Numbered from the stretch's first letter, positions 3,970-33,000 are shown. The stretch: DNA of 64,000 nucleotides from Candidatus Latescibacterota bacterium (GCA_965243025.1 CBDETY010000003.1:2400001-2464000), one strand, 5' to 3'. Numbers and translations: made by a program. The notes: generated by a model not told the origin, from the letters alone.

Positions 3970-4956
3970 ATGCTCATATCAGATGCGATCCACAAAGCGG
4001 ATCGGCTCGAACAGATCAAGGTACTGTTTCGGCGGCGGCCCGAAGGGGTAGGAACCGGGGAAATCGCCCGACTTTTGGGGGTGAGCCAACGGACGGCCCG
4101 GCGCTATGTGAAGGAGCTGTCGGAGCGGGGACGGCTCCCGGTATACCGGGAGGGCCGCGTCTGGAGGCTGGTGGAAGGCGGGCACATCGACCTGCTTCGC
4201 ATCCAGCTGAACCTCGACGAGGCCCTCTCGCTCTACCTGGCGGCGCGGATGCTGTCGGCCTACAGCGACAAGCACAATCCACATGTGGTTGCGTCCCTGC
4301 TCAAGCTCGCCGCAACCCTGCCCGACGCCATCGGAGAGCACGTCGAGCAGGCGGCCGTGGCTGTTTCCCAAAGGCGGCTTGCCCCGGACTACCTGAAAGT
4401 TCTGGAAGGCCTTACCCGGGCATGGGCGGGCCGGCGGCAGGTGCAGCTGGTTTATCGCGATCCCATCACCGGGGAGCGCTCCGAGCGCCTGTTCGATCCC
4501 TTCTTCATCGAGCCCTCCTTCGTGGGCTATTCCTGTTATGTGTTCGGGTTCGATCACTTCCGCCAGGCGATCCGCTCATTCAAGGTCGAGCGGCTGGAAG
4601 ATGTAGAGGTGCTCGATACCCGCTTCGAGCCTCTGCCGGACTTCGACCCCTACGACTACCTCAAGCACTCCTGGGGAATCAGGGGCGGCGACGAGGTAGT
4701 GGAAGTGAAGCTGCGCTTTTCCAGAAACGCGGTCTACCGGGTGAATGAATCGGACTGGCCCGGGGTTGTTGCCCACGAGGAAGACCGGGAGGGGCGCTGT
4801 ACGCTGACGTTCCTGGTCAATCACGTCCTGGAAATCAAGTCCTGGATCAGGGCATGGGGACCGGAGTGCGAGGTGCTGTCCCCGGAGGAATTGCGCCGGG
4901 AGATCGGGGAGGAGATGAAGGCAGCGAGGGAACTGTATGCAGACAACGAGGAATGA
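3970..4956 (+). CDS. HTH-WYL-WCX transcriptional regulator (PafB/BrxR/CapW-like)
   Basis: N-terminal wHTH (EIARLLGVSQRTARRYVKEL), WYL core (RLFDPFFI...CYVFGFDHFRQAIRSFKVERL), WCX end (SWIRAWGPECEVLSPEELR); RBS GGAGGAG. Confidence 0.93.
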   Translation: MLISDAIHKADRLEQIKVLFRRRPEGVGTGEIARLLGVSQRTARRYVKELSERGRLPVYREGRVWRLVEGGHIDLLRIQLNLDEALSLYLAARMLSAYSDKHNPHVVASLLKLAATLPDAIGEHVEQAAVAVSQRRLAPDYLKVLEGLTRAWAGRRQVQLVYRDPITGERSERLFDPFFIEPSFVGYSCYVFGFDHFRQAIRSFKVERLEDVEVLDTRFEPLPDFDPYDYLKHSWGIRGGDEVVEVKLRFSRNAVYRVNESDWPGVVAHEEDREGRCTLTFLVNHVLEIKSWIRAWGPECEVLSPEELRREIGEEMKAARELYADNEE

Positions 4957-15313: not shown

Positions 15314-15325
15314 TCGCACTCCCCG

Positions 15326-17665
15326 ATGAACAACCAACCCTTCAATCGGAAACTCATCGTGTCCATCCTGGCGGTAATTCTGGTGTTATGCGTCCTCCCA
15401 GGAACCAGCCACGGCGGCGGCGTCGGCGATGTCATCGGAGGAATCGTCGAGGTCACGGTCGGCCTCGTGGAATTGACCGTCGGGATTGTCGAGATCGCCG
15501 TCGGGGTAATCGACCTTACCGTCAGCCTCCTTGCCACCCTCGCCTTGCATACGGCTGCCGTCACCGCCGCCATCATCAGCCCGGACGGCGCGACGCTGAT
15601 CAGCGCAAGTCTCGACCTGACAATTGCCCTGTGGGATCTCACGACCGGGGTGCTCGGGGCTACGCTGGAACATCTGTCTCCTGTCCTGAGCCTGGCCCTC
15701 TGCCCCCTCGATGGCTGCCTTCTGGCAAGCGGGACCGAGGACGGCAAGCTGCACCTGTGGAACCCCGACACCGGGCAGCTCATCAGAACGCTCATCGGGC
15801 ACACCGCCGCCGTGCTCAGCTCGGCTTTCAGTCCCGTCGACCACAGCCTGCTGGCAAGCAGCAGCGCGGACCGCACCATACGTCTCTGGGATGCGGTGAC
15901 GGGTACACACCAGCGGACCCTCACCGGGCATACCGACAGTGTCCTGAGCGTCGCCTTCAGTTCCACCGGCGACAAGCTGGCCAGCGGCAGCGCGGACGGC
16001 ACCATACGTCTCTGGAACCCAGGGACAGGTGCGCACCAACAGACACTCACCGGGCACACCGAAGCCGTCATGAGCCTTGCCTTCAGTTTCAGCGACAGCC
16101 TGCTGGCCAGTGGCAGCGAGGATGGAACGGTGCGGTTGTGGAACGCCCTCACCGGGGAGCACCTCGCCACTCTCGATCACAAGTCTCCTGTCCTGAGCGT
16201 GACCTTCGGTCCCGGCGACAGTCTGTTCGCCAGCGGCAGCGAGGACGGCAACGCGCGCTTGTGGGACCCCGCCGGGGAACTGTTGGCAACACTCGGGCAC
16301 GAGTCTCCGGTCCGCAGCGTGGCCTTCAGTCCCGACGGCAGCCTGCTGGTCAGCGGGGCGGAGGACGGCAAGGTGCGCCAGTGGCAGGTAAGGTCCGTCG
16401 CTAGTTGTTGTCCCCGGAATCCGGCGAACGATTTCGACACGATGAAGGCTGCCGGGAACGAATCGCCGCGAGGCATCTGGTCGGATGGAACCACCATGTG
16501 GGTTGTGGACGACTGGGACGACAAGCTGTACGCCTACGACATGGCATCAAGAGACCGGGATCCCGCCAGGGACTTCACTACCCTGGATGGGGCTGGAAAC
16601 AACAAACCATCCGGCATCTGGTCGGACGGAACCACCATGTGGGTCGCCGACTATTTCGACAGGAAGGTGTACGCCTACGACATGGCATCCGGTGCCCGGG
16701 ATTCCTCCGAGGATTTCAATACCCTGGATGCAGCCGGGAACACGAGGCCACAGGGCATCTGGTCCGACGGAACCACCATGTGGGTGGCCGACGACTGGGA
16801 CGAGAAACTGTACGCCTACGACAGGACATCAAAAGCCCGGGTACCGGCAAAGGATTTCGACACTGCCGGGAATCATTACCCCACGGGCCTCTGGTCGGAC
16901 GGAGCCAGTTTGTGGGTGGCCAACTACGCTGGATCAAAGTTGCATGCCTATGACCTGACCACCAAGGCCAGCGAACCGGACAAGGACTTTCTAACTCTGC
17001 GCTCGGCGGGAAACAATCTTCCGGTCGGCATCTGGTCTGACGGAACCACAATGTGGGTAACGGACGACTCCGACAGGAAGCTGTACGCCTACGACATGCC
17101 AACCGATGGGGAAAGACCGGTCGTGGACGCACCCCAAACCCCCGGTACTGGTACAACGACACCGCCTGCGCAAACCTCAGCGGCCACCGACTTCAACGGG
17201 GACGGCAAGACCGATTTCGTCGACTTCTTCGAGTTCATCGACGCCTTCGGCAGCACGGATTCCCGCTTCGACCTGGACGGCAACGGAACAGTGGATTTCG
17301 TGGACTTCTTCGAGTTCGTCGATGCCTTTGGCCAGGAGGAGCGCGCCAAGATGGTGGCGATAGCCCAGGAAATGATCGCTTTGCCGACTGAAACCCGGCT
17401 CCACCAGAATGCGCCCAACCCGTTCAACAGTGAAACGGTCATTTCCTGGTTCCTGTTGGAGCCGATGCCGGCGCAACTGGAGGTGTTTTCCCTGACCGGG
17501 CAAAGGGTTGCGGTCCTGCACCAGGGGCCTCGACAGGCCGGCCGCCACCGAATCCATTGGGACGGCAGGGATATCGGGGGCCGTCCCCTGGCCAGCGGGG
17601 TTTACCTGTACCGTCTGGTTACTGACGAAAGTGTCCTTACGAGGAAGCTCACCCTGCTGAGGTGA
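15326..17665 (+). CDS. Secreted WD40 + five-repeat GIWSDGTTMWV propeller + dockerin-like + FlgD/T9SS-CTD-like protein
   Basis: Signal peptide, about 7 WD40 repeats (GHT...LASGSxDGTIRLW), five repeats of about 47 aa, shared C-terminal cassette. Confidence 0.88.
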   Translation: MNNQPFNRKLIVSILAVILVLCVLPGTSHGGGVGDVIGGIVEVTVGLVELTVGIVEIAVGVIDLTVSLLATLALHTAAVTAAIISPDGATLISASLDLTIALWDLTTGVLGATLEHLSPVLSLALCPLDGCLLASGTEDGKLHLWNPDTGQLIRTLIGHTAAVLSSAFSPVDHSLLASSSADRTIRLWDAVTGTHQRTLTGHTDSVLSVAFSSTGDKLASGSADGTIRLWNPGTGAHQQTLTGHTEAVMSLAFSFSDSLLASGSEDGTVRLWNALTGEHLATLDHKSPVLSVTFGPGDSLFASGSEDGNARLWDPAGELLATLGHESPVRSVAFSPDGSLLVSGAEDGKVRQWQVRSVASCCPRNPANDFDTMKAAGNESPRGIWSDGTTMWVVDDWDDKLYAYDMASRDRDPARDFTTLDGAGNNKPSGIWSDGTTMWVADYFDRKVYAYDMASGARDSSEDFNTLDAAGNTRPQGIWSDGTTMWVADDWDEKLYAYDRTSKARVPAKDFDTAGNHYPTGLWSDGASLWVANYAGSKLHAYDLTTKASEPDKDFLTLRSAGNNLPVGIWSDGTTMWVTDDSDRKLYAYDMPTDGERPVVDAPQTPGTGTTTPPAQTSAATDFNGDGKTDFVDFFEFIDAFGSTDSRFDLDGNGTVDFVDFFEFVDAFGQEERAKMVAIAQEMIALPTETRLHQNAPNPFNSETVISWFLLEPMPAQLEVFSLTGQRVAVLHQGPRQAGRHRIHWDGRDIGGRPLASGVYLYRLVTDESVLTRKLTLLR

Positions 17666-17810
17666 GAACAGGAGGACGTTCACTTAAGGAGGGATTTATG
17701 CCTTTTCGAGAATGGAAACCAAAATTCTGGTGTCTACATATTTGCACAGGACGTTCTACATTGGCATAAGCAGTAAGCAGGGTTCTTTCGAATCGACAGG
17801 AGAAACGTAT

Positions 17811-18497
17811 ATGCAGTGTTTTTTTCTGGTCTTCTGCCTGGCCGCGCTGGCATTGCACTCGCCGCTTTTCGCCCAGAAGATTGAAGATGTCATTCACTTG
17901 AAAAATGGAGAAACGGTTCGCGGCACCATCATCGAGCAGATTCCGGGCGAATCGCTGAAGATACAAACTGCCGACGGCAGTGTTTTCGTCTATACCATAT
18001 ATGAGATCGCCGAAATAAGCAGGGAACCTGTGATGAAAATGGAAGAGGGGTTCATCAAGGCCAGGAAGAAAAATCCCTGGCTTGCCTCCGGCCTGTCATT
18101 GTTGATTCCGGGTACGGGGCAATTTTACAACGACCAACAGAAAAAGGGTTTGCCCCAACTTGGCGTTGCACTTGCGGGAGCAGGGCTTATGTGGTGGGCG
18201 GTGCGGGATAATTATGAAACTTGGGAGAGTTATGAAAACAACCCTTCCTGGAACCCGCTCGATTGGATCGATGAGAATGGAAACGACAAGCTGTTCTATC
18301 TCGGGACTCCCCTCTGGTTAGGCAGCCTGGTCTGGTCGGTGGTTGATGCAAACCGCTCGGCCAACCGGATCAACCAGGAAGGCGAACAACCTGATTTCGG
18401 TCATCTGCTGGAGTTGGGTACCGACCGGGTCACACTTGGAGTGGATCCCGTCTTCGGGCCCTACGGACCGGGTGGGAAACTGATACTTCATTTTTGA
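17811..18497 (+). CDS. Exported/membrane protein with a DVIHLKNG small beta domain and a TM2/DUF5683-like KxPWLAxxLSLLIPGxGQFYN segment
   Basis: RBS AGGAGA before ATG 17811, signal peptide, motifs as named. Confidence 0.7.
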   Translation: MQCFFLVFCLAALALHSPLFAQKIEDVIHLKNGETVRGTIIEQIPGESLKIQTADGSVFVYTIYEIAEISREPVMKMEEGFIKARKKNPWLASGLSLLIPGTGQFYNDQQKKGLPQLGVALAGAGLMWWAVRDNYETWESYENNPSWNPLDWIDENGNDKLFYLGTPLWLGSLVWSVVDANRSANRINQEGEQPDFGHLLELGTDRVTLGVDPVFGPYGPGGKLILHF

Positions 18498-18638
18498 TCT
18501 CCATTCAGGGGCGACTCTTCCATCCTGACCATGAGAGCGCAGGAAACCTCTTCATCTTTTTTCAGGAGCAGCCGGATTTGGAATGACTGACCGTCGATTG
18601 AAAATCCGTTTATCCAGTTACCCGCAAGGAGACAGTTT

Positions 18639-20528
18639 ATGAATTACTATGGTCTGATTTTGTTATTGGCCCTGAGCCTCGCCGCATGCAGAGGACCCCA
18701 GGGTCCCCCGGGCGGTGATGGCCAGATGGGCCCGATGGGCCCTACCGGCGACCAGGGTTCCCAGGGGGAAAAAGGAGAGCAGGGATCTCAAGGACCTCAA
18801 GGGGAAACGGGAGACCAGGGACCCCAGGGGGAAACTGGACCTCAGGGCCAACAGGGTTCCCAAGGGGAAAAAGGAGATCAGGGACCCCAAGGGCCTCAGG
18901 GGGAAACAGGACAGCAAGGACCTCAAGGAGAAACCGGGGAACAGGGACCTCGAGGACCCCAGGGGGAAACAGGACCTCAAGGGCCTCAAGGGGAAACTGG
19001 AGAACAGGGACCTCAAGGAACCCAGGGGGAAACAGGACAGCAAGGGCCTCAAGGAGAAACCGGGGAACAGGGATCTCAAGGACCCCAGGGGGAAACAGGA
19101 CAGCAAGGACCCCAAGGTGACCCAGGACCTGAGGGACCCCAGGGACCGGAGGGATCTCCAGGCGAGCAAGGACCTCCAGGTGACCCGGGACCTGAAGGAC
19201 CCCAGGGACCGGAGGGATCTCCAGGCGAGCAGGGACCTCCAGGTGACTCAGGACCTGAAGGACCCCAGGGACCGGAGGGACCTCCAGGGGAACAAGGACC
19301 TGAGGGACCTCAAGGGCCCGGCGGTGGCGAACAAGGGCCCCCGGGACCTCCCGGCCCCGAAGGGCCCCAGGGACCTCCTGGCGAACAAGGACCTGAAGGC
19401 GAGCGAGGACCGGAAGGACCTGAAGGACCCGAGGGACCTCAAGGCGAGCGAGGACCTGAAGGACTGGAGGGACCGGAAGGGCCAGAGGGGCCCCAGGGCG
19501 AGCGAGGGCCGGAAGGACCGGAAGGACCTCAAGGACCTGCAGGGTCCGGAGGCGGCCAAGGGGGGCAGGAACCTCCCGTCTTCGAGGCCACGGGGGACAG
19601 CGCCGCTCTGGTAGCGCTTTACTATGCGGCGGGTGGGGATGCCTGGACGCAAAAGTCCGGGTGGCTCAGCTCGGCTCCCATCAGCAGATGGTACGGAGTC
19701 ACTACCAACCCCAGCGGCCGCCAGGTACTTCGCCTGGACCTGTCAGAGAATGCGTTGTGGGGGCCAATTCCCCCCGAATTTGCCAACCTCCCCTACCTGG
19801 AATTCCTGGACCTCTCCGATAACGGTTTGCGGGAGGAAATTCCACCGGAACTGGCAAACCTGGAAAACCTGGAAGTTCTGAATCTTTCAAACAACGATTT
19901 GCAGGGGGAGATTCCGCCGGAACTGGCAAACCTCGAAAACCTGGAAATCCTCGGCCTGTTCGGCAACGATTTGCAGGGGGAAATTCCCCCGGAACTGGGA
20001 GACCTCAACAATTTGAAAGCACTGTCCCTGGGTTTCAACAGGTTGGAAGGAGAAATTCCACCGGAGCTGGCAAACCTCGAGAACCTGGAGTTCCTGAACC
20101 TGAGCAATAACCGGTTCGAGGGAATTCTGCCGGATTTTCTGGCGGATTTCCCCAACCTGGAAGACCTGTTTCTCGGTGGAAACACCCAACTGAATGGATG
20201 CTTGCCCGAAGGGGCGTCGGTGCCGTTCTGCACACAGCCAGGCAACCTCAATGCAAGGCGGGAAAACGGCACTACAGTCCTCACTTGGGATCCTGTGGAA
20301 GGGGCTACCCACTATAATATTTACTATGAGGATTTCTGGGGTGAATGCTCCGTGACTTCTGGTGGTGTAACCGGCAGCTTCGCGTGTGATTTAGTGGTTG
20401 CCGACATCTTTGAGACGACCTACACACACACCGTCAGGGAGGACGATGATGCAGAGTACTGGGTTGCTGCCTGTAACGACGACGGGTGCTCCCCGATATA
20501 CAGAACTGATTCGGGAGCCAGTCCTTAG
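18639..20528 (+). CDS. Collagen-like lipoprotein with plant-type LRR and FN3-like C-terminus
   Basis: Lipobox LSLAAC; roughly 90-95 Gly-X-Y triplets; DSAALVALY...WYGV cap; [12 protein letters not shown] LRRs; [15 protein letters not shown]. Confidence 0.9.
18693..19550 (+). repeat. Gly-X-Y coding tandem repeat (9-bp units with higher-order 63-bp blocks)
   Basis: Repeated GGACCTCAA/GGGGAAACA units; 7-triplet blocks [21 protein letters not shown] and [21 protein letters not shown]. Confidence 0.9.
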
Positions 20529-20748
20529 GATTTCTTTGGAGAAAAAGGGGCGTCTCGTCCGAACGATATCGCAGGCCCAATCACCAAAATTTGCCGGATG
20601 AGAACGCCTCTTCCCTGTTGGACCGATTTCGCATAACCCTCACCCGGGGTTTGTGAAACCACGTGATGAAACCAAACATGGATTCCAACCGAACTTCCAG
20701 GGAGACCTTTTCATCAGGTACTCCTTGCACCGGAAAGGAGGAAAGGCA

Positions 20749-21876
20749 ATGAATTACCTTGTCATTTCTTCGTTGATTGTTTTCGCCCTCGCCGCCTGCG
20801 AAGGGCCTCCGGGACCGATGGGCCCTCAAGGGCCCATGGGCGAGCAGGGTCCGTCAGGGCCACAGGGTCCTCAAGGGCCTGAGGGACCACAGGGAGAAGG
20901 TGAACAAGGACCTCCAGGGCCCCAGGGACCCCCGGGACCGCAAGGGCCTTCTGGATCCCCGGTGGAAACCGGTGAACAGGGACCTTCGGCCTCCCCTGCC
21001 ATGTCGGACAGCACCGTGCTGGTTGCGTTCTACCACGCCACGGGCGGAGAAAGCTGGAAGGACAACACCAACTGGTTGGGTGAGGCCCCCATCAGTGAAT
21101 GGTACGGTGTCACCACCAACCCGGGCGGCCGCTACGTAACCCGGCTCGATCTTTCGCAGAACGGGTTGTGGGGAACGATCCCGGCTGAACTGGGAAACCT
21201 CCCTTACCTCGAACTCCTCAGCCTGCACAGCAACGAGCTCCGGGGGGAGGTTCCGGCGGAACTGGCCAACCTTGCCAACCTGGAAATCCTGGGCCTGGAG
21301 AACAACAGGCTGCAGGGGGAAGTCCCGTCGGGATTGGGCCAGCTTGACAACCTGCTCGCGCTGGCCCTGGGGAACAACAAGCTGCAGGGAGAGATTCCAG
21401 CGGAACTGGGAAACCTCGACAACCTGGAGTACCTGAGCCTCAACAACAACCGGTTGGAAGGAGTGGTCCCGTCCGAACTTGCCGACCTCAAATACCTGCA
21501 ATCCCTGTTTCTCGACGGAAACAACCAACTGAACGGATGCCTGCCCGAGGGGGCTTCGATCTCTTACTGCACAAGCCCTGGAACCCAGCGATTCAGATGG
21601 GAGGAGGAAACGATAGTCATCAGCTGGGAACCCGTGGAAAGGGCGACCCACTACAATATCTACTGGGACGATTTCTTCACATCCTGCCGTCTGGAGCAAA
21701 GCGGTGAACCGAGCTGGTGCGAGGAACTTGCAAAAAAGGTTTCCGGGACGACCTACGTTCATACCGATCCACCGGAACCAGGCCTGTTCGACATCAACTA
21801 CTGGATCACTGCCTGCAACGGCGATGGTTGCTCGAAGATCGACACTGAAAACCCGGCCAGGTCTTCGAACCAGTAG
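20749..21876 (+). CDS. Short collagen-like lipoprotein with LRR and FN3-like domain (paralog of 18639..20528)
   Basis: RBS AGGAGG, ATG 20749, lipobox FALAAC, short Gly-X-Y run, same LRR cap, GATHYNIY-like motif. Confidence 0.88.
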
Positions 21877-21937
21877 AAAACAAACTTTCAAGAAGGTGCA
21901 TCGGAAAACCAGCCCTTCATCTGAAAGGAAGGATGCA

Positions 21938-22888
21938 ATGAAATATCCGGCGTTTTTCTTGTTACTCGCTTTTGCCTTCTCTGCATGCACCGGCCCCCGG
22001 GGGGAACAGGGTCCGATGGGACCTCAAGGTCCCCAAGGAGAAAAGGGAGAACCAGGACCAGCCGGGCCAGAAGGACCGGCGGGGGCACAAGGGGAAACGG
22101 GGGGACAGGGACCCCAGGGAGAACCTGGCCCAGCCGGTTCGAACAATGGAGGATCCGCGCAGAGCATGCTGTACTGGACCGACACCGGCGCGGGCAAGAT
22201 TCACCGCGCAAACCTCGACGGTTCCGAAGTTGAAACCATCGTCTCCGGATTGGAAGATCCGGAGGGCATTGCCCTCGACGCGGAGGCAGGCAAGGTCTAC
22301 TGGACGGAACAGGAGAGCGTTAAACGGGCAAACCTCGATGGCTCCCAGGTCGAAAGCCTCGGAACCGTATCGGGCAGCGACATCGCTTTGGACGTGGCTG
22401 GCGGCAGGTCGTACCTGGGGAACTGGAAAGAAACAATCTACCGCACGGGCCTCGGCGGCTCCCCGGTCGAAACCCTTCTCACCGATGCCGGTGCATCAGA
22501 GGTCATCGCCCTGGATCTGAGAAAGGGCAAGATGTACTGGGCAGGCTGGAGGGGAGAAGAAATCAGGCGGGCAAACCTCGACGGGTCCGAGGACGAAACC
22601 ATCATCACCGGGGCGGCGCGTGTGTACGACCTTGCCATCGACGAGGGCGGAGGCAAGATATACTCCGCAGGGTGGGACGGGATTCTTCGAGCCAACCTCG
22701 ATGGATCCCAGGTCGAAACCTTTTTCCCCGGAAGTTTCAAGGGCGTTGCCCTCGACGTGGGCGGTGGCAAGATATACTGGACGGATTGGATTGAAGGCAA
22801 CATTCAGCGGGGCAATTTCGATGGCTCCCAGGTAGAAACAATCGTCTCCGGACTGGATGAACCTCACGATGTCGCTTTGGGTCCCTGA
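21938..22888 (+). CDS. Short collagen-like lipoprotein with YWTD beta-propeller
   Basis: RBS AGGAAGG, ATG 21938, lipobox FAFSAC, Gly-X-Y run, then LYWTD...RANLDGS repeats. Confidence 0.88.
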
Positions 22889-22979
22889 ACCCGGCATGAG
22901 CGGGAATAACCAGGAATGCTGCAGGTGAACCCAGGCCGTTTGCGAATTTTCCGACGGCAATCCTGAACCCTGTGGAATC

Positions 22980-24554
22980 ATGAGAAAGCAGCTCATCTTC
23001 CCAATCTTTGTTGCAGTAGCCGCTTTGAGCTGTTTCCCGAGGTACCTCGGGGCCCGGACAGATGTCGATGTCCTCTCCGAAAGCATCGTCCGTGTTCGGG
23101 CGTACGACAATAACCAGGTTGCCGTCGAGGGAGCCGGGTTTGTCGTCAACGAAATGGGACATGTCCTTACGAATGCCCATCTCATTGAGAAAGCGGAGAG
23201 AGTAACGGTATTGTCCCTGAAAACGGACGCCGAGGCAATTCCCGGGCAGGTGTTCGCAGACCGGGAAACAAACCTCGCCCTTTTGCAAACAGAGAATTTG
23301 AACCTCCCCCACCTCAGGCTGTCCGAAAGGGCAGCCGGTGCAGGCCAAACCGTCCGGACGCTGCGCTTCGGCGTCATGGGGGACGTCTCGCTTTCCCAGG
23401 GAACCGTAAGCGCCTGGGAAACCATTTTCGAAAAGAAGGCAGGACGGCCCGTCGGGCGCCTGCTGCAACACAATGCCTTGATAACAGGAAAAGCCTTCGG
23501 CACGCCCTTGTTCAACGAATGCGGAGACGTGGTGGCAATCAACATGCCGAACCCACGCGGCGAGCCTTGGCCGTTTCGAACAGCGAAGCCGAAAGGAGCG
23601 GTTTTTGCCTTGAGCAGCAAAGACATGGTGGCTGCTCTCGACGACCGGAAAATCCCGCATCAGGCGGTAAATACTGAATGCCTGGGTGCACTCGAGCGGG
23701 CCGAACGCGACAAACTGGCCACCGAGGACAGCCTGAAACTGGCAAGGGCGGAAGCCGACTCGGCGATAAAGGCCGCATCAGAAGCCGGGGAGAAGGAGAA
23801 GGCGGCCCGGCAAGAGGCTGAAAGGGTTATAGCCCGGGCGGACGCTGCAAAAAGGGCCGCTGCCCGGAGCATTCAGGCTGCCAGAGCCCAGGCGGAGAGT
23901 CTGAAAAGAGCGACAACGCGGGCGGTCACCGCGGTAAAAGCTGCGCCCGATGGCCCGCAGGCTTCCAAGGTTCAAACGGACAGCCTGGAGACAGGGAAAG
24001 CGTTCCCCGATGCGGCGACTGATGAGATCTCCGGCAGCAGCGAACAACCTGCCCGGGAGATCCCGCTGAGCTTGAAGTGGGGAATTCCAATCGGGGGAGC
24101 CGTTGTGTTGCTCACCCTGCTCGGCTGGTTGCTTGCTACCCACCGTAGAAAGGAACAGCTGCGAAGCGCCGAGTCCCGTTTGAGCGCAGCGCACCAGGCT
24201 GCGGCGGCCGCACCGAAGCCGGCGCCTTTCAGATGCCTGCTGGAAGGCCGGGACAGCTCCGGCCGGGAATTCGCATTGACCATATCGGCCCTGGCGCTGG
24301 GTGATCCGGCCGGTGTAACGCTTGGGAGGAGTCCGGCGAATGCCGATTTCGTCGTCGATCACGATGAAGTCTCCCGCGAACACGTCCGCCTCAGGTGCAC
24401 TGGCCCCACCCTCTACGCGGAGGATTTGAACGCCCTGAACGGGACCAGGGTAAATGGCCGTTTGCTGAATCAGGAGGAAAGGGTGCCCCTGCAAAACGGG
24501 GATCGGCTCGAGACAGGCCCGATTGTTTTCTCCGTGCTCCTGGTCCAGGAGTGA
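22980..24554 (+). CDS. Membrane protein: trypsin-like (S1C) domain with degenerate triad, coiled coil, TM helix, FHA domain
   Basis: GAGFVV...VLTNAHLI, ETNLALL, HNALITGKAFGTPLFNECGDVVAIN; TM WGIPIGGAVVLLTLLGWLLA; FHA motifs LGRS...VSREH...DLNALNGTRVNG. Confidence 0.85.
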   Translation: MRKQLIFPIFVAVAALSCFPRYLGARTDVDVLSESIVRVRAYDNNQVAVEGAGFVVNEMGHVLTNAHLIEKAERVTVLSLKTDAEAIPGQVFADRETNLALLQTENLNLPHLRLSERAAGAGQTVRTLRFGVMGDVSLSQGTVSAWETIFEKKAGRPVGRLLQHNALITGKAFGTPLFNECGDVVAINMPNPRGEPWPFRTAKPKGAVFALSSKDMVAALDDRKIPHQAVNTECLGALERAERDKLATEDSLKLARAEADSAIKAASEAGEKEKAARQEAERVIARADAAKRAAARSIQAARAQAESLKRATTRAVTAVKAAPDGPQASKVQTDSLETGKAFPDAATDEISGSSEQPAREIPLSLKWGIPIGGAVVLLTLLGWLLATHRRKEQLRSAESRLSAAHQAAAAAPKPAPFRCLLEGRDSSGREFALTISALALGDPAGVTLGRSPANADFVVDHDEVSREHVRLRCTGPTLYAEDLNALNGTRVNGRLLNQEERVPLQNGDRLETGPIVFSVLLVQE

Positions 24555-24560
24555 GTTGAA

Positions 24561-25511
24561 ATGAAAAGACGCAGACCCGAACTGACGATTTTCAGTATGT
24601 CCGCGCTCGATCTGCTCGCATCGGCCCTCGGTGCTTTCATCCTGATAACCGTAGTGCTTATCCCCCTGTTCCCGAACCTGGAAATCCTGGGTCAGGTGAG
24701 GGGCGAGTTGGCCCAGAAAAAAACCGAGTTGGAACAGACCAGGGAAGATCTCGACCTGGCAATGGCCGAATTGGACCGGAAGAAATCCGAATTCCAGTTG
24801 GACAAGGAGAAATCGGAGCGGGAAAGGACTCAACTGGAGCAGAAGAACGTCGAGCTGAAACGGGAAAAGGCCGGACTCGAGCAGAAAAAGGCATTGGCCC
24901 GGCAGACCAGAACCGAACTTGTAGAACAGATCCAGGCGTTACAACAAAAGATTGACGACACCAGTGTCCTGCTCGGCATAAGGACAATCGCCAGGAAATT
25001 CGTTTTCGTCATCGATATGTCGGGCAGCATTTACCACCCCGGGGAGCACGACTACCGCCAGTTCATAAGGCTGTCCATACAAGACATGCTCGCTTCCTTC
25101 AAATCCGAAATAGAAGTCTGCCTGATCGGTTTTCAGACTCCTGAACGGGGAACAACCTTGCATTTCTGGCCCGAGAACAAGGAATACTTCCAGGTCGGGA
25201 AGGATGCACATGATCAACTGATTGAAAAGGTAAACGACTGGATGGGAATGGTAGACGGCGTCACCCCTACCCGGGCGGCGTTGCTGGAGGCCATTGCCCT
25301 GCAACCTGAGGAAATCATCCTTCTGAGCGACGGGGCTCCCTCGGAGGACTGGCGCACGGTGGTGCGAGCCGTAACCGCCGAAAACAGGCAGAGAATACCC
25401 ATACACGCAGTAGCCGTGGGAAATTACACCGCGGACCGGAAGTTCATTGATTTCCTCGTGAATCTGACAAAGCAGAACAACGGGTACGTGGTGGGAGCAA
25501 AACCGGGCTGA
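24561..25511 (+). CDS. MotB/ExbD-like single-TM protein with coiled coil and vWA domain
   Basis: Basic N-terminus, TM with Asp (SALDLLASALGAFILI), coiled coil, MIDAS motifs FVIDMSGS, GVTPT and ILLSDGAP, then IPIHAVAVG. Confidence 0.8.
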   Translation: MKRRRPELTIFSMSALDLLASALGAFILITVVLIPLFPNLEILGQVRGELAQKKTELEQTREDLDLAMAELDRKKSEFQLDKEKSERERTQLEQKNVELKREKAGLEQKKALARQTRTELVEQIQALQQKIDDTSVLLGIRTIARKFVFVIDMSGSIYHPGEHDYRQFIRLSIQDMLASFKSEIEVCLIGFQTPERGTTLHFWPENKEYFQVGKDAHDQLIEKVNDWMGMVDGVTPTRAALLEAIALQPEEIILLSDGAPSEDWRTVVRAVTAENRQRIPIHAVAVGNYTADRKFIDFLVNLTKQNNGYVVGAKPG

Positions 25512-25537
25512 CATGTACGGCTGAGAGGAGAAGGAGA

Positions 25538-26338
25538 ATGGCGGAATCCAACATGGTAAAACCCAGAAGCATCAACAGGGACCAACGACTGATCGCCAGC
25601 GTCGTCAGTCTGGCCGGGGGCATTTTTTACATAGCTGTCCTGAGCTTTGTTTTCGATCATCCCGATTCCATCGCGGGCGACTTCCTGCTGGATCGCAACT
25701 CCAGAAACTTCACCTACCCGTTCACCATCCAGAACCTCATGTGGCTGTTGTTCTGGTTCGGGTGCGGCGAACTGTTTGTGCGGTTCAACCAGGCCAAGCT
25801 CGAAATGGAGCAGATTTCCAAAGGTTATCTGCCGGAAGGTGACGAGGTAATGCTTCAGGCCCACGAATTGGGGCCCTTGCACCAGAAATCCATGCCCGTC
25901 GCCAGGGAACGGACCTTTTTCCTGCCGCGTCTGATCGTGCGCTGCATCCTGCAATTCCAGGGAAGCCGCTCCGTCAACCAGGCCAACTCCCTGCTCAATT
26001 CCTCCCTCGAGTTGTTCCAGCACGAGCTCGACCTCAAATACTCGATGCTGCGCTACCTCGTCTGGCTCATTCCGACGATGGGTTTTGTGGGCACTGTTCT
26101 CGGCATCGCCTTGTCCCTGGACTACGCGGCGAAAATCGTGGACCCCCATGACCCGGACTTGCTGCGCCAGATCACCGGGCGGCTCGGGGTCGCCTTCTAC
26201 ACCACCCTGCTTGCCCTGGTCCAGTCCATTCTTCTGGTGTTTGCGCTCCACATTGCCCAAAACCGGGAGGAAATGGCCCTGAACCTGTCCGGGCAGTACT
26301 GCCTGGACAACCTGATCAACCGCCTCTACGAAAAGTAA
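25538..26338 (+). CDS. MotA/TolQ/ExbB proton-channel family protein
   Basis: IPTMGFVGTVLGI and LGVAFYTTLLAL motifs; four TM segments. Confidence 0.88.
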   Translation: MAESNMVKPRSINRDQRLIASVVSLAGGIFYIAVLSFVFDHPDSIAGDFLLDRNSRNFTYPFTIQNLMWLLFWFGCGELFVRFNQAKLEMEQISKGYLPEGDEVMLQAHELGPLHQKSMPVARERTFFLPRLIVRCILQFQGSRSVNQANSLLNSSLELFQHELDLKYSMLRYLVWLIPTMGFVGTVLGIALSLDYAAKIVDPHDPDLLRQITGRLGVAFYTTLLALVQSILLVFALHIAQNREEMALNLSGQYCLDNLINRLYEK

Positions 26339-26391
26339 ATCTCCTTCGAGAAACTCCGCGTCTCAGGGAACCCCAAGGAAGGAAGGGAACC

Positions 26392-27045
26392 ATGCCGGTT
26401 TTTCGCCGCCCCGATGGAAACATAACCGAGAAAAAAACCGGGAAATCAGAGAAGGATTCCCCGCCGCCCGACCAGGCCAACAGGCCGCTGCCGCCGGCAT
26501 CTCAGGAAGGGGGTCAAGCCGCTCCCCCCGGTCGTTTCGATGCTGCCACCAAGCGGATGGAGACAGACCCTTCACCACCCCGCCCTGGAGATGACGAGAA
26601 AACACGGCTGGTCGGTGGACGGGCGCCGCGGTCAGACAAAGGGGTCGTCCAGGAAAGCGCCGCGGAAAGCCGCGGGATGGACGATCCGGTCGTTGGATGG
26701 CTGGTGATCGTCGAGGGGCCGGGAAAGGGCCGGGCGGTGCAACTGGGGTATGGATCCAATTCCCTCGGGCGCGGCGCAACCGACCGCGTCAAGCTCGATT
26801 TCGGCGACGACCAGATTTCCCGGAATGGCCATGCGGTGGTCACCTACGACCCCCGCGGCCGGAAGTTCTACGTGCAGCACGGGGGCGGCACCAACCTGAC
26901 GTATCTCGGCGATCAGCCGGTCTTGACTCCGGCAGAGTTGCCGCCAATGGGCCGGATCGGAATCGGGAATACCGTTCTCCGGTTCGTGCCCTTCTGCGGT
27001 ACGGAGTTCGACTGGCAGGACTCGGAAGAAAGCGAAGACGCTTGA
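26392..27045 (+). CDS. FHA-domain protein with Pro-rich N-terminus
   Basis: PVVGWLVIVEGPGKG...SLGRG...DDQISRNGHA...GGTNLTYL; candidate phospho-Thr motifs ATKRM and EKTRLV in the disordered part. Confidence 0.85.
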   Translation: MPVFRRPDGNITEKKTGKSEKDSPPPDQANRPLPPASQEGGQAAPPGRFDAATKRMETDPSPPRPGDDEKTRLVGGRAPRSDKGVVQESAAESRGMDDPVVGWLVIVEGPGKGRAVQLGYGSNSLGRGATDRVKLDFGDDQISRNGHAVVTYDPRGRKFYVQHGGGTNLTYLGDQPVLTPAELPPMGRIGIGNTVLRFVPFCGTEFDWQDSEESEDA

Positions 27046-27920
27046 GCGAAAGCGGTCGCTGTGCCGCGGGGCAAATCCGCGGCAAACGGAGCTGCCAGGA
27101 AGACGACTACGGCTTCGTCGATGCACGCGCCCTCGGAACAGACCGTAACGAACACTCCCTGTTACTGGTGGCCGACGGCATGGGCGGCCACGCCGGCGGC
27201 GCCACTGCCAGCGGTCTTCTGAGAAAGACCTTTGTCGAGGCCTACCCGCGGGCTTCCGGGCCGATCGTCCATCGCCTTCAAGGTTGTCTCCAATCGGCCA
27301 ATGCAGCCATGGCGGACGCCGTTGACCAGAATCCCGAGCTGGCCGGCATGGGTTCCACCCTGGTCGCGGCCGTCGTCTCCGCCGGGGGCCTGAACTGGAT
27401 CAGCGTCGGGGATTCCCCGTTGTGGTTGTTCCGCAAGGGCGCGCTGGAGCGGTTGAACGCAGACCACTCCATGGCACCGGTCCTCGCCGACCTCGTTTCC
27501 ACCGGGCGGATGACCGAAGAGGACGCCGCCCGGGATCCCGCCCGGCATTCGCTCAGGTCCGCGGTCACGGGCGAGGACATACATCTGGTTGACATATCGC
27601 CGCAACCGGTTCCCGTGGAGAATGGCGACCGGCTGCTGTTGGCCAGCGACGGGTTGATGACCCTCGGAGACCGGGAGATCTCCGGTATCCTTGCCGAAAC
27701 GCAGGAGGCGCCGTTGGAGGACAGCGCCGCGGCCCTTATCCAGGCAGTGGAAGCCGCGAGCAATCCCCGCCAGGACAACACCACTCTTCTGTTGTACGCC
27801 CCCGCCGGAGGCACCCAACCCCCCGGGGCCGATGTGGCCGGGTCGGAAGCCGACCGGGGCATTCCCCGCCTGAAACGCTGGGCGAGACTGTTTGGCAGAT
27901 CCGCAGGACGGAAACAGTAG
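27042..27920 (+). CDS. PP2C/PPM-family Ser/Thr protein phosphatase
   Basis: RSCQEDD, VADGMGGHAGG, GSTL, VGDSP, DHS, LLASDGL, QDNTT; probable TTG start overlapping the FHA stop (TTGA). Confidence 0.92.
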   Translation: MSESGRCAAGQIRGKRSCQEDDYGFVDARALGTDRNEHSLLLVADGMGGHAGGATASGLLRKTFVEAYPRASGPIVHRLQGCLQSANAAMADAVDQNPELAGMGSTLVAAVVSAGGLNWISVGDSPLWLFRKGALERLNADHSMAPVLADLVSTGRMTEEDAARDPARHSLRSAVTGEDIHLVDISPQPVPVENGDRLLLASDGLMTLGDREISGILAETQEAPLEDSAAALIQAVEAASNPRQDNTTLLLYAPAGGTQPPGADVAGSEADRGIPRLKRWARLFGRSAGRKQ

Positions 27921-27993
27921 GGGGTCAGCCGGGAGGCCGGGGAAGCAGAAAAGGTGCCTTGGCGGCCCTGCGATACACACACGGTCCGGTCTG

Positions 27994-29979
27994 ATGGGTG
28001 AGGAACAACAGCATCGCCTGGCGCTGCCGAAGGGGACTCGCATTCGCGACTTCGAGTTCCACCGGGTTCTCGGCCACGGCGGGTTCGGGATCACCTACCT
28101 GGGGTGGAACATCACCCTGGATATTCCCGTCGCGATCAAGGAGTACTTCCCCTCGGACCTGGCTACTCGCGAACGGAACCTGTCCGTCGTTCCGCAGACA
28201 GCCCAGGCTGCCCCTGATTTCAAATGGGGCCTCGAGCGCTTCCTGGACGAAGCCCGCATCCTCGCCCGCTTTCAACACCCCGGCATCGTCCGCATCCATC
28301 ACTTCTTCGAAGCCCACCGCACCGCCTATATCGCGATGGAATACGTGGAGGGAGAAAGTCTGTCCGCATATCTGAAGCGCAAGGGAACCCTGAGCGAAAA
28401 GGAACTGAAAGGAATATTGGATCCGTTGCTGGGCGCTTTGGAAGTGGTCCATCGAGCAGACTTTCTGCACCGGGACATCAAGCCCGCCAACATCGTCCTC
28501 CGGGCAAAGGACGGCTCCCCGGTGTTGCTGGACTTCGGCGCGGCGCGTCAGGCAATGGGCGCCAGGAGCCGCTCGGTCACGTCGATAGTTACCCCGGGGT
28601 ATGCGCCGATCGAACAGTATTCGACCCGGGCTGCCCAGGGAGAGTGGACGGACATTTACGCCCTGGGAGGGGTCTGTTATCGGGCGTTGACTGGAGAGAG
28701 CCCCTTCGATGCAACCGACCGGATGCGGAACGACCCGCTGGTTCCGGTGGCGCAACGATGCGCGGGCAAAGCCAGTCCGGGATTTCTCGCGGCGATAGAT
28801 GCGGCCCTGGCGGTCGATGCCCCGGACCGTCCCCAGAGCATTCCGGCGTGGCGAGAGTCCTTCAGCGATGCCGGGAAAGTCCGCAGGCCCCGGAAGAACC
28901 TCCCATACAGGCTTGTTGCAGCAGCCTTGGGGTTGGTTGCTCTCCTGATCGGTGGCGAAAGGTATATGGAGCACGCCGCACAGGCGGCAGCAGAGGAGAA
29001 ACGGCTGGAACAGGAAACGCTGGAGAGACAGGCTCGGGAGCAAGCCGCCCTGGAGAAACAGCGCCGGGAAAAGGAAGCGTTGGAGAAACAGCAACGGCGC
29101 AAACAAGCGTCGCTGAAGGAAAAGCGTCAGGAACAAGCCGCCCTGGAGGAACAGCGCCAGGACCGGGCGGCGTTGGAGAAGCAGCGGCGGGAAAAAGCGG
29201 CGCTGGAAATACAGCGTCAGGAAGAGGCGGTACTGGAGAAACAACGTCAGGAACGGGCCGCGTTGGAGAAGCAGCGGCGGGACGCTGCATTGGAAAAGCA
29301 ACGCCTGGAAGGTGCGGCATTGGAGAGACAGACTCAGGAACAGGCATTTGTTGCAGAGGTGGGACGCCCCCCCAACCCCGGTGGGATGAACAACGGCGAC
29401 ACCGATCTGCATACCGCCGCCCGGTTGAACCTGCCCCTGTTGACGGTATCCCTGCTCGAGCAGGGAGCTGATGTCCACGCCGGGAACAAGGACGACTGGA
29501 CACCCCTCCACGTTGCCGCCGGGGAGAACGCTTCGGCATCCGCCGAAGTCCTGCTTCAGCGGGGAGCTGACGTCCACGCAAAGAACAAGGACGGCTGGAC
29601 ACCCCTCCACGTTGCCGCCAGGGAGAACGCTTCGGCAACGGCCGAGCTCCTGCTCGAACAGAAAGCCGATGTCAACGCCAGGGAAAAATTGTTCGGCTGG
29701 ACGCCGCTGCACCTGGCCGCGGCAAAAGAGGATGCTTCTGCAACCGCCGAGATCCTGCTGAAACAGAAAGCCGATTTGAACGCCAGGGACAAATTCGGCT
29801 GGACTCCGCTGCACTCTGCGGCATCCAACAATTCTTATGAGACAGCCGAGGTTTTGTTGAACAGGGGGGCCGATGTCAACGCCAAGGACAATCACGGCTG
29901 GGGACCGCTCTACTGGGCGTCGCGAAAAAATGCCTCCGAGGCCGCGGCCGTCCTGCGCAGTCACGGCGCTCGACAGTAA
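27994..29979 (+). CDS. Hanks-type Ser/Thr kinase with TM helix, 12-aa charged repeats and C-terminal ankyrin repeats
   Basis: LGHGGFGITY, AIKEY, HRDIKPAN, DFG, GYAPIEQ, DIYALG; TM LVAAALGLVALLIGG; AALEKQRxE repeats; about 5-6 TPLH-type ankyrin repeats. Confidence 0.93.
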   Translation: MGEEQQHRLALPKGTRIRDFEFHRVLGHGGFGITYLGWNITLDIPVAIKEYFPSDLATRERNLSVVPQTAQAAPDFKWGLERFLDEARILARFQHPGIVRIHHFFEAHRTAYIAMEYVEGESLSAYLKRKGTLSEKELKGILDPLLGALEVVHRADFLHRDIKPANIVLRAKDGSPVLLDFGAARQAMGARSRSVTSIVTPGYAPIEQYSTRAAQGEWTDIYALGGVCYRALTGESPFDATDRMRNDPLVPVAQRCAGKASPGFLAAIDAALAVDAPDRPQSIPAWRESFSDAGKVRRPRKNLPYRLVAAALGLVALLIGGERYMEHAAQAAAEEKRLEQETLERQAREQAALEKQRREKEALEKQQRRKQASLKEKRQEQAALEEQRQDRAALEKQRREKAALEIQRQEEAVLEKQRQERAALEKQRRDAALEKQRLEGAALERQTQEQAFVAEVGRPPNPGGMNNGDTDLHTAARLNLPLLTVSLLEQGADVHAGNKDDWTPLHVAAGENASASAEVLLQRGADVHAKNKDGWTPLHVAARENASATAELLLEQKADVNAREKLFGWTPLHLAAAKEDASATAEILLKQKADLNARDKFGWTPLHSAASNNSYETAEVLLNRGADVNAKDNHGWGPLYWASRKNASEAAAVLRSHGARQ

Positions 29980-30080
29980 AAAAAAGACGGCCGGGGTTTA
30001 TTCAGAAACATGGCACACCACAACCGAGTGACTCATTCGCTCACGGCCTCCCGGCACAACCGCCAACTGAGGACAGGCCC

Positions 30081-33000
30081 ATGAAAACCTGGTTGTACAA
30101 ACCCGCCTGTCTGGCGATAGCGGGTCTTTTTCTTTCGCCTCGCGCAGGCCATGTCTCCCCCTTCCCTATCGACTGGTCGATCTCCTGCCGGCCGCTCGAC
30201 GCGGAGCAGTGGGAGGAAGGTCACCCCGGCGGCCATGCCGCCAAGTTGCTCTCCGCGAACGCCGACCAGACGCGCGACGTGAAGTTGATCTACTTCATTC
30301 CCAACGACCGCACGTTCGACTCCGACGTGGTCGACTCGATAAAAGTCAGGATTCCCCGCATCCAGACTTTTTTTCGGGACCAGATGCAGGCGCACGGCCG
30401 CGGCACGAAGACCTTCCAGTTTGAAACCGACGCCCAGGGAGATCCCGTGGTGCATCGCGTGGACGCGCCGAACTCCGACGACAGCTATCTCCGCTCTTAC
30501 CGTAGGGTCGGCATCGGCAACGTGCTCAGGGATCTGAGACCGGCGTTTGATTCCAGCAGCAGCATTCTGTTCATCGTCGCCGACCACAGCACCTACGACA
30601 ATCTCGGTTGGGGAAACGTGGCCGGGTTCGGCGGGCGGGCAGGCAAGAACAGCGGCTACGCCCTTGTTCCCGCCAGCTTCATTGACGAAACCGCGGCTCA
30701 CGAACTCGGCCATGCCTTCGGGTTGCAGCACGATTTCAACGACAATGCCAACATCATGTCGTACGGCCCGGGATGGAACCGGTTATCCGCGTGCAGCGCC
30801 GGGTTCCTGGCCGCGCATCCCTACTTCGATTCCGGCGTCCCGATTGAGGAGCAGCAGACCTGGGACCTTCTGGCGCCGGCCGTCGATCTCGTTTCCCCCC
30901 TCAGGTATGCGGCGGGCTCAAAGAGCTTGTCAGTTCAATTCAGAATCACCGCCCCGGGAAATCCGGGGCTTCACCAGGTGCTTTTCTTCCTCAAATCAAG
31001 GGCGCCCCACCCTGCCGCCGGATCGCATGAAGTAAAGGGATGCCATGACCTGCATGGCGTGCAGGATACCGTCGTTGTATTCCAGCATGACGGGGTGATC
31101 CCGTCGAAGGGCTCGGGAAATCTTTCCGACTCCCCTGCGCATTACCTGTCCGTACAGGCAGTCGATACCGATGGGAACGCCAATTCCGGCCCTTATAAAG
31201 ATTCTCATTTCGTTCTGGCGGAAGATTCTCCCCACCACCTCGCCACGCTTTTCAGGTATACGCGGGATACTTCGCCCGAGATCTATGGCGCGAAGTTTTC
31301 ACGGGACGGAACGATCCTGGCCGTCAGTTCGTCCGCGGGAATCCAGATCTGGAACACGGCGACTCGAGCCGCGGTCGGAAGTCTCAGCGGGGGAAGCTCC
31401 TGCCTGGCCTTTTCGCCCGACGGGACCACCCTCGCCTCCGGGTCCACCAGAACCGACGAGGCCAACATCGAGCTGTGGGACGTGGCCAACAAATCTCTGA
31501 TCGCCACCCTTCCGGGGCATACGGGAGGACCTACGGGGGTCCATTCCGTGGCGTTTTCGCCCGGCGGGGACACCCTCGCTTCAGGTTCGGGGGATCAGAC
31601 CATCAAGCTGTGGGACGTGGCAAACCGAACCCTTATCGCCACCCTCACCGGGCATGCGAGTCATGTCTTCTCGGTGGCCTTCTCGCCCGACGGTACGCTC
31701 GCTTCCGGGTCGCGGGACGGCGCCGTCAAGCTGTGGGACGCGGCATCGCAAACCAGTACAGCCACCCTGGAGGGAAATACAGGCAGGGTCCTCGACGTGG
31801 TGTTTTCCCCCGATGGATCCCTCCTCGCAGCGAGCACGGACGGGCCGATGCTGCTGTGGAACGTGGCGGCGAGAGATACGACCGCCGCCCTTCAGGGGCA
31901 CGGAGAGCCGTCGTTTTCTTCGGACGGGACCATCCTTGCCACCGGGGCAAGCCTGGGGGAGGTCCTGCTGTGGGACCTTGCGACGAAGGCAATCACCGCA
32001 AAACTCGGGCATCCGGACCGGCTGGAGGACGCCTGGGGTTTCGGGATCAACGGGGTGTTTTCTCCGGACGGTTCCCTGCTCGCTTCGGTCGGGCTGAACG
32101 GGATCGAGCTGTGGGACGCGTCGGAGTGGACGGGAGTCTCTCCTGTCGCCTCCGCGCCCGCCCACCCGGACAGTGTCGCGCTGGCTGCGCTGTACGATTC
32201 CACCAACGGGGCGGGTTGGCAGGACAGGACGAACTGGCTCAGCAGCAGGCCCCTCGGCGAGTGGGAAGGCGTCTCAACCAACAGCCTCGGCCGCGTCAAC
32301 GACCTGGAACTCAGTTGGAACCGGTTGAGCGGGACGATACCGGCCGAGACAGGCAACCTCACCTTCCTGTCCTCCCTGTACCTCTATGTCAACCAGTTGA
32401 GCGGCTCGATTCCTCCCGAGCTGGGCAACCTGTCGAATCTGATTTACCTGGAAATCAATCACAACCGGTTGAGCGGACAGATTCCCCCGGAACTGGGGAA
32501 TCTGTCCAGGCTGGAACGGTTGTGGCTGCAGAGTAACCAGTTGAACGGAGTGATCCCCTCCGAGCTCGGCGGGCTGACCAACCTCAAGAAACTGAATCTC
32601 GCTGGCAACCAGTTGAACGGGGCCATACCGGTGGAATTGGGAGACCTGACGAACCTGACCAGCCTGGGGCTCTCCAACAACCGGTTGACCGGATCGATAC
32701 CGGCGGAGTTGGGGAACCTGACCAACCTGACCAGCCTGGGGCTCTCCAACAACCAGCTGACCGGGGCCATACCGGCGGAACTGGAGAACCTGACCAACCT
32801 GACCCACCTGTACCTGGCCGGCAACCAGTTCACCGGGTGCATCCCCGCGGGCCTGCGGGACGTGGCGACCAACGACATGGGTACGCTCGGCCTGTCCGAC
32901 TGCGGCCAGGAACAAACCCGGGCTGCCACCGACTTCAACGGCGACGGCAAGACCGATTTCGTCGACTTCTTCCAGTTCATCGACGCCTTCGGCAGCACCG

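Follow-up and report, generated by a model that had tools for sequence, protein, structure and literature searches.

Conserved linkage of a putative vWA-headed, MotA/TolQ-type motor with FHA, kinase and PP2C genes in Candidatus Latescibacterota

The stretch of DNA analysed here, referred to as the window, comprises 64,000 nt from a Candidatus Latescibacterota bacterium (GCA_965243025.1 CBDETY010000003.1:2400001-2464000), and coordinates are given within it unless another locus is named. It contains a cluster of six genes, A to F, all on the + strand and closely packed, in which genes for a putative ion-driven membrane motor (B and C) stand together with kinase, phosphatase and FHA genes. The linkage of these genes is far beyond chance, since it is seen again in dozens of loci. 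In a Pfam scan, gene A (22980..24554; 524 aa) codes for Trypsin_2 (4e-18) and FHA (8e-16) domains, B (24561..25511; 316 aa) for a VWA_3 domain (1.7e-8), and C (25538..26338; 266 aa) for a MotA_ExbB domain (7.6e-10; 39.1 bits against a cut-off of 22.9). These are followed by D (26392..27045; 217 aa) with an FHA domain (4.6e-6), E (27042..27920, in an open reading frame (ORF) from 26697; 292 aa) with PP2C_2 (7.9e-10) and SpoIIE matches, and F (27994..29979, in an ORF that opens with TTG at 27892; 661 aa from the ATG) with Pkinase (2e-38) and Ank (2e-37) domains.

The intergenic gaps are 6 nt between A and B, 26 nt between B and C, and 53 nt between C and D. The most likely start of E is the TTG at 27042, which overlaps the TGA stop codon of D (27043-27045; TTGA in the sequence), and that of F is the ATG at 27994, since most orthologues align from about residue 35 of the ORF (range 7–40). 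A first-pass annotation of this DNA had described the same domains, the tight packing and a PP2C gene with an overlapping start, all of which agree with the Pfam scan and the gap lengths. A scan of 21500-30600 for promoters and terminators gave 1 promoter-like and 12 terminator-like sites, numbers close to those in shuffled sequences (1.5 and 12.3).

The product of gene C passes the cut-off of Pfam family PF01618 both in the window scan and in a search of the genome. Its hydropathy profile has strong segments at residues 18–36, 174–192 and 218–236 plus one weaker segment, corresponding to three or four transmembrane (TM) helices, and the protein ends 28 residues after the last of these. In an alignment of 17 sequences the orthologues are 66–93% identical, and the last two TM helices contain invariant P179, T180, G182, G185 and T186, and T222 and T223, respectively. 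The 25 best-ranked matches listed in a Foldseek search with a C model are all MotA, ExbB, TolQ or PomA (probability 0.98–1.0). C belongs to a large subfamily, as its profile matches thousands of cluster representatives (2893 at E ≤ 1e-3, 1085 at ≤ 1e-10 and 171 at ≤ 1e-30); its look-alikes in the Atlas are mostly Pseudomonadota clusters, no more than a lead to a tie with the published Idiomarina family of the vWA-partnered class discussed below. There is no ExbD gene near C: the seven ExbD matches of this genome are all more than 1 Mb from either of the two C copies (described below), and these seven genes have other TolQ/ExbB genes beside or close to them. The genome also contains a third MotA_ExbB-like gene, of divergent sequence (L002:8720-9496, which is G000:C3:1623719-1624495; 258 aa, 25.5 bits); its neighbours lack Pfam matches and there is no ExbD nearby.

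The product of gene B has a basic N-terminus, a TM segment at residues 18–36 (by hydropathy), a long helix and a vWA head. It thus has the N-terminal single TM helix with a conserved Asp that is typical of partner subunits, and the first-pass call of an Asp-bearing TM helix holds, with D17 invariant in all 16 aligned homologues. Also invariant in these are D152, S154, S156, T237 and D257, which we take to be the DxSxS...T...D residues of a metal-ion-dependent adhesion site (MIDAS). The alpha/beta head of an AlphaFold2 (AF2) model matches vWA folds in Foldseek (best E 5e-10), so that both the intact metal-site residues and the fold identify it as a vWA domain. In the same model (mean predicted local distance difference test score, pLDDT, 66.7; 70–94 in the vWA part), residues 45–133 form a single helix of 89 residues, which would be about 13 nm long if straight.

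A pairing of this type has been predicted previously: vWA proteins with an Asp-bearing transpore helix (TPH) were proposed in 2025 as the dimeric partner in TolQ-like pentamers encoded without tolR or exbD, the vWA genes being mostly heterologous pairs in Proteobacteria and Verrucomicrobia with no known phenotype (PMC12204202; Mol Biol Evol). B and C have the architecture by which that class is defined, with a gene for an Asp helix and vWA head adjoining a tolQ-like gene and no tolR or exbD nearby. Tandem pairs are also found among relatives of the cluster (L013, L014, L073, L076, L081 and others), whereas a heterologous pair is absent from the window, whose only B has a long coiled coil; the paper describes pairs as 'predominantly' the case. 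The words kinase, phosphatase and forkhead are absent from the main text of PMC12204202, and 'FHA' occurs there only within 'FhaC'. In the literature searched, which excluded subscription journals, no report was found that connects a motor of this type with FHA, kinase and PP2C genes. The first-pass description of the system as undescribed is thus too broad for the pairing of a vWA protein with a TolQ-like one, and applies to its wiring to FHA, kinase, PP2C and protease-like genes, where the novelty seems to lie.

The remaining four genes code for the putative phosphorylation switch. A has a signal-like segment at residues 5–23, a charged helical linker and a TM segment at 368–386 (by hydropathy), and the signal-like N-terminus and TM segment would place its HtrA-like domain in the periplasm and its FHA domain in the cytoplasm. 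In an alignment of A to MucD (8k2y), the catalytic His is retained, with Asn in the place of Asp and Phe in that of Ser; these substitutions are common to 23 of 23 orthologues. By these alignments A is a conserved pseudo-protease, of the HtrA/DegP-like fold family with a dead triad, in line with the 'pseudo-trypsin' of the first-pass annotation.

D is a soluble FHA protein. An alignment of 26 orthologues displays an N-terminal motif MPV[FY]R.PDG.I.E, a Pro-rich linker and then the FHA domain, with an invariant Thr in E.T[RVQ].x.GG shortly before it; in GarA and OdhI, too, the linker before the FHA domain bears a Thr. The FHA domains of the cluster match the FhaB/FipA and OdhI models of NCBIfam below cut-off, including a match of D to the FhaB/FipA-like model at 1.6e-11. 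We note that the N-terminal motif of D (26392-26435) resembles the conserved C-terminal tail PVRRNPETGEII of small FHA proteins that are encoded between B and C in many relatives (e.g. L015:8661-9047, L024:9420-9788 and L013:9064-9513), and the common motif may be a docking or phospho-acceptor peptide.

E matches the Stp1/IreP-type PP2C model of NCBIfam at 1.3e-38, and its translation shows what we take to be the acidic motifs usual in PP2C. F is a Hanks-type Ser/Thr kinase, with VAIK, HRD and DFG motifs present in its translation. Counted from M35, its kinase domain is followed by a TM segment at 303–321 (by hydropathy), about 130 aa of repeat-rich, charged coiled coil, and ankyrin repeats that are predicted to lie outside the cytoplasm.

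The first-pass annotation predicted that the genes would co-occur in other genomes, and they do so in 26 further loci of the same phylum (10 related loci and 16 that were fetched), in metagenome contigs and in two Planctomycetota loci. A protein search gave 425 homologues of B, and among 120 listed only one is named, a 'hypothetical protein' of a Gemmatimonadetes metagenome-assembled genome (MAG). Searching genome contigs identified nine loci with the cluster, in MAGs labelled Candidatus Latescibacterota, Gemmatimonadota, Gemmatimonadaceae and, in one case, Acidimicrobiaceae. In this last locus, L005 (CAYWGY010000078.1, 'uncultured Acidimicrobiaceae'), the proteins are 60–91% identical to those of the window (B 77%), and a binning or labelling error seems likelier than transfer. 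These nine and a paralogous copy in the same genome make up the ten related loci, eight of which contain all six genes; the other two end at a sequence edge. Across the phylum a B profile matches 35 of 168 genomes (7 of 52 high-quality genomes), patchily by genus, and some genomes have 2–4 matches.

In the 16 further loci, C, D, at least one kinase and a B-type helix protein are always present, A is found in 14 and PP2C in 13. B is complete in 11 of these loci and has a non-vWA head in five. Such B variants (L015:9059-9796 and L017:8701-9528, also L016, L018 and L019) have the Asp helix and coiled coil, and a head of about 110 residues with a DIDLHV.DP motif and no Pfam match. Many loci include a gene for a small FHA protein between B and C, and two have tandem B pairs together with an M48 peptidase gene and a small FHA gene instead of A. 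The gene order is shuffled among loci, which argues for selection on the linkage itself.

Relatives outside the phylum extend this pattern. A metagenome scan gave 181 C relatives, of which 80 loci, 45–75% identical to C, were kept; counts refer to the 27 loci that extend for 4 kb or more on both sides, scored by tblastn within 6 kb of C and including near-duplicate contigs. Twenty-four of the 27 code for an Asp-helix protein, 24 for FHA, and 24 for FHA plus a kinase or PP2C; A-type genes are present in 21, kinases in 17 and PP2C in 15. Read by eye, all 69 B-like metagenome ORFs listed keep the Asp (51 of 69 with a narrower script pattern), and the motif S-A-[LIV]-D-L-F-A-S-A-[LM]-G-A-F is found in all 69 with small variations. 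A vWA head is identified by Pfam at E ≤ 0.001 in 24 of the 34 B-like proteins scanned. One apparent single ORF of 419 aa (L079:1004-2260) contains an Asp helix, vWA and FHA domains, and is either a fusion or a sequencing frameshift; its sisters L076 and L077 have a separate small FHA gene at the corresponding position.

In a sample of 201 Planctomycetota genomes, a C-family profile matches 24 at E ≤ 1e-25. Eight loci were fetched, and two of them code, in this order, for a kinase, an FHA-TM-trypsin protein, a C-like protein, a protein in which an Asp helix is followed by a coiled coil of about 270 residues and a vWA head, and another kinase; other C-like genes in this phylum have different contexts. 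The FHA-TM-trypsin proteins have the reverse domain order of A and an apparently active triad. The same membrane topology is thus reached through a different domain order, which argues that the link is functional and not just inherited. Chance juxtaposition is rejected, as the set recurs both with shuffled gene order and, in Planctomycetota, with different domain order. One candidate locus, L012 (Planctomycetaceae, 28% vWA match), was dropped, as its vWA gene is unrelated and has SmpB and a radical-SAM gene for neighbours. At another Planctomycetota locus (L123:9495-11730) a C-like MotA_ExbB gene adjoins one for a GYF-domain protein, reminiscent of GltJ of the Myxococcus gliding machine.

Many loci have a second A-like gene (A2), whose His/Asp/Ser triad is intact in 12 of 12 beside the dead A, and some have two to four kinases, the outer domains of which include FGE-sulfatase, PDZ, ankyrin, TonB_C, Excalibur, PG_binding_1 and Sel1. 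The best NCBIfam matches of A are of the DegP/DegS/HtrA types. These features, like the apparently active trypsin domains of the two Planctomycetota versions, would suit a system for envelope-stress signalling and regulated proteolysis, in which HtrA-like A and A2 and the receptor kinases monitor damage and B–C serves as a sensor or anchor, not a force generator. We consider this unlikely as the whole explanation: the window and its closest kin lack an active A2, and it leaves unexplained why the channel subunit and the Asp-helix protein are the most conserved components. It is compatible with a phosphorylation-switched motor and not exclusive of it.

MotAB-like pairs outside motility also occur in Zorya, and PADLOC gives weak matches to ZorA2 (2.6e-5) and ZorB (2.5e-3). 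If the cluster were an anti-phage or other conflict system, Zorya-like or not, its motor would sense perturbation of the envelope by a phage, with kinases and FHA proteins relaying an abortive or protective response; the patchy distribution and multiple copies in the phylum, the variable heads and kinase outer domains, and matches of F to the defence-kinase models mad6 and PD-T4-6 (as any Hanks kinase would give) are in keeping with this. What we take to be the defining features of Zorya are a long ZorA tail, a peptidoglycan-binding ZorB domain, and ZorC/D or ZorE. The cluster has FHA, kinase and PP2C genes in their place: C, at 266 aa, is too short after its last TM helix to have such a tail, B has a vWA head and no peptidoglycan-binding domain by Pfam, and PADLOC, run on the seven ORFs that begin with A and end with the WD40-LRR gene, finds no ZorC/D/E, as the first-pass annotation had also stated. 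Membership in Zorya is thus rejected. For a defence role more generally, there is no nuclease or helicase effector among the 35 window ORFs (Pfam) and no nuclease or other effector in the loci scanned, the core proteins are very conserved, unlike typical arms-race genes, and the genes on either side have housekeeping functions or encode surface proteins and do not form defence islands; we regard such a role as improbable.

The whole cluster is present twice in this genome, within a duplicated block of about 16 kb (15276-31470 in the window and G000:C3:835000-852185, or L001 1-17185) with 80–92% DNA identity overall. The DNA of B, C and D does not differ between the copies (100% identity), the FHA end of A is likewise 100% identical, and the kinase domain of F is 94–100% identical; the periplasmic parts have diverged, to 60–94% in A and 42–80% in F. 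This pattern fits that expected of one core with varied sensors. The identical B, C and D core looks like gene conversion or a very recent duplication, and an assembly artefact is also possible. A whole-genome Pfam search for FHA matches the two A copies only.

Around the cluster, 5138-38006 is a single same-strand array of giant eukaryote-like repeat proteins with LDL-receptor class B/YWTD, CARDB, WD40, LRR, collagen triple helix, cadherin-like and fn3 domains, several of which carry sorting domains of the type IX secretion system (T9SS). A gene coding for collagen repeats and a YWTD beta-propeller (21704-22888) lies directly upstream of A, and its counterpart is found upstream of A in the paralogous copy and at L003:7310-8302 and L008:7338-8336, with none in more distant loci; the protein could be a ligand of the vWA head. 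Animal vWA domains bind collagen through MIDAS. These neighbours, and the duplication of the entire block as a unit, are what would be expected of an adhesion, surface-display or motility device for the giant surface proteins with an Agl-Glt-like or GldLM-like drive, in which the vWA head of the motor would hold or move the neighbouring collagen-like, LRR and WD40 proteins that have T9SS tails. Conservation of the flanking genes, however, ends with close kin: six of eight loci scanned have unrelated flanks (L013 with NQR and antiporter genes, L015 with SbcC, L017 with a gene resembling that of an undecaprenyl-phosphate translocase, and L020, L024 and L026 with others), as do the Planctomycetota loci. 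The surface-protein association is therefore confined to close kin, and we think it very unlikely that such a device is the general function. A gene for an HTH-WYL(-WCX) regulator lies upstream of the repeat array (3970-4956), and one is near the cluster in L008 (6474-7253).

Several other systems share components with this cluster. The PpkA-PppA-Fha1 genes of type VI secretion systems (T6SS) and the FhaA/FhaB-PstP-PknA/B genes of actinobacteria combine a Hanks kinase, PP2C and FHA proteins in one operon, but here they accompany a MotA/TolQ-type motor and not T6SS or cell-wall synthesis genes. Among the 35 window ORFs Pfam finds no TonB, flagellar or T6SS genes, consistent with the first-pass annotation, which had allowed for an accessory cluster of a T6SS with its core elsewhere. 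This does not apply, as the genome is without TssC and FliG: a T6SS accessory cluster is rejected by the lack of a VipB/TssC match in the 96%-complete genome (E. coli control positive), and a flagellar stator by the lack of a FliG_C match (control positive in 4 genomes). In the TerY-P triad, vWA, PP2C and Ser/Thr kinase proteins are encoded together; the vWA domain of B differs in being predicted to lie in the periplasm on a membrane stalk, beyond the reach of the kinase, and the channel subunit and FHA proteins are additional. GldLM/PorLM of type IX secretion is a 5:2-type motor whose dimeric subunit is a long, periplasm-spanning shaft. It has no sequence relation to B and C (the Pfam match is to MotA_ExbB, not GldL/M), and the shaft of B would be a coiled coil with a vWA tip. 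A search for the GldL family gave no match in any genome, the controls among them, and so carries no information on a type IX motor.

A further parallel is Agl-Glt of Myxococcus. In the portion of PMC11761067 available, it has a TolQ/TolR-type motor, AglRQS, a membrane protein, GltG, whose TM helix and the FHA domain next to it are predicted to dock on AglR5QS, and a vWA adhesin, CglB, at its far end. GltG is thus a precedent for A, as an FHA protein beside a motor. It differs in that the C-terminal domain of GltG is TonB-like where the other domain of A is protease-like, the vWA protein is an outer-membrane lipoprotein and not a motor subunit, AglQ/S are ordinary TolR-like proteins, and the model as described in that portion includes no kinase or PP2C. 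A paper on conflict systems (PMC7159879; eLife 2020) contains no 'MotA', and the part of it that was available describes no such cluster. No case of direct control of a 5:2 motor by Ser/Thr phosphorylation was found in the literature searched, again without subscription journals.

Our interpretation, which we hold to be somewhat better than an even proposition as a whole, is of a phosphorylation-switched, ion-driven motor with a vWA-tipped shaft. C and B would form a C5B2 inner-membrane motor of the MotAB/ExbBD/TolQR type, C providing the channel ring and B the central helices with the ion-binding Asp. The B dimer would extend into the periplasm as a shaft of about 13 nm with two metal-dependent vWA heads, replacing the TolR/ExbD/OmpA-like domain. 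The receptor kinase F would sense through its coiled coil and ankyrin repeats and phosphorylate Thr sites, the best candidate being the invariant Thr of D, and the phosphatase E would reset the signal. The FHA domains of soluble D and membrane-tethered A would read the phospho-threonines, and the dead HtrA-like head of A is probably a binding module. The phosphorylation state would set FHA docking on the motor and so engage or release it, and ion flow would lead to pulling or turning on an envelope ligand held by the vWA head and the A head. The first-pass proposal of a force-generating machine gated by Thr phosphorylation is partly supported: the domains, the Asp, the MIDAS residues, the dead triad and the gene linkage across phyla are shown, and the B–C complex, the use of ions, the phosphorylation targets, the docking and the mechanical output are inferred. 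The roles that it suggested, adhesion, export of neighbouring proteins or Zorya-like defence, are conjectural.

Several observations weigh against this interpretation. Pfam finds no ExbD, MotB_plug or OmpA domain in B at E ≤ 0.01, comparison of B with the seven ExbD proteins of this genome shows no relation (hhalign probability 0.4), and the sole sequence hint of MotB-type kinship is the weak ZorB match to the TM region of B (E 2.5e-3). As B is not detectably related to ExbD, 'MotB-like' names a role and not a family, so that the first-pass label of a MotA/MotB-like motor stands for the family of C and only by analogy for B. The structural matches of C have TM-scores of up to 0.62 and a best E of 6.5e-3, with none at E ≤ 0.001, from a model of pLDDT 69. 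A complex prediction with four copies of C 62–266 and two of B 1–60, which is not the 5:2 stoichiometry, scored 0.17 against a mark of 0.32 and counts neither for nor against the complex. There is no invariant cytoplasmic Thr in C (17 sequences), and C is therefore probably not itself the FHA-read phospho-target. Ten of the 34 B-like proteins scanned are without a Pfam vWA head, and PP2C is found in 13 of 16 and 15 of 27 loci and the kinase in 17 of 27, counts in which tblastn may miss divergent copies.

A broader and rather doubtful extension is that the cluster represents a widespread, unrecognised envelope machine, in which an ion-driven 5:2 motor, switched by eukaryote-like Thr phosphorylation, would power work in the ATP-free periplasm. 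It might then be a proton-powered periplasmic unfoldase or protease, or a force sensor, in which the stalked vWA head grips a protein and the membrane-tethered HtrA-like partners (dead A, active A2) hold or cut it, under interchangeable kinase sensors (ankyrin, FGE-sulfatase, Sel1, PDZ and TonB-like).

Flagella, TonB uptake, Tol-Pal, gliding, type IX secretion and Zorya defence all depend on ion-driven 5:2 motors, and little is understood of how these are regulated. The gene set described here provides a testable hypothesis in which the parts are defined, and it is conserved in at least two phyla and many environmental contigs. A part in host sensing, suggested by the ankyrin sensors and the eukaryote-like surface-protein neighbours, might be envisaged and is speculation. 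The regulatory wiring is of real interest because it is conserved, apparently unreported in the text searched and directly testable. In vitro assays of the kinase, the phosphatase and the FHA proteins are straightforward, and these proteins would offer a first route to the function of the vWA transducers predicted in 2025.

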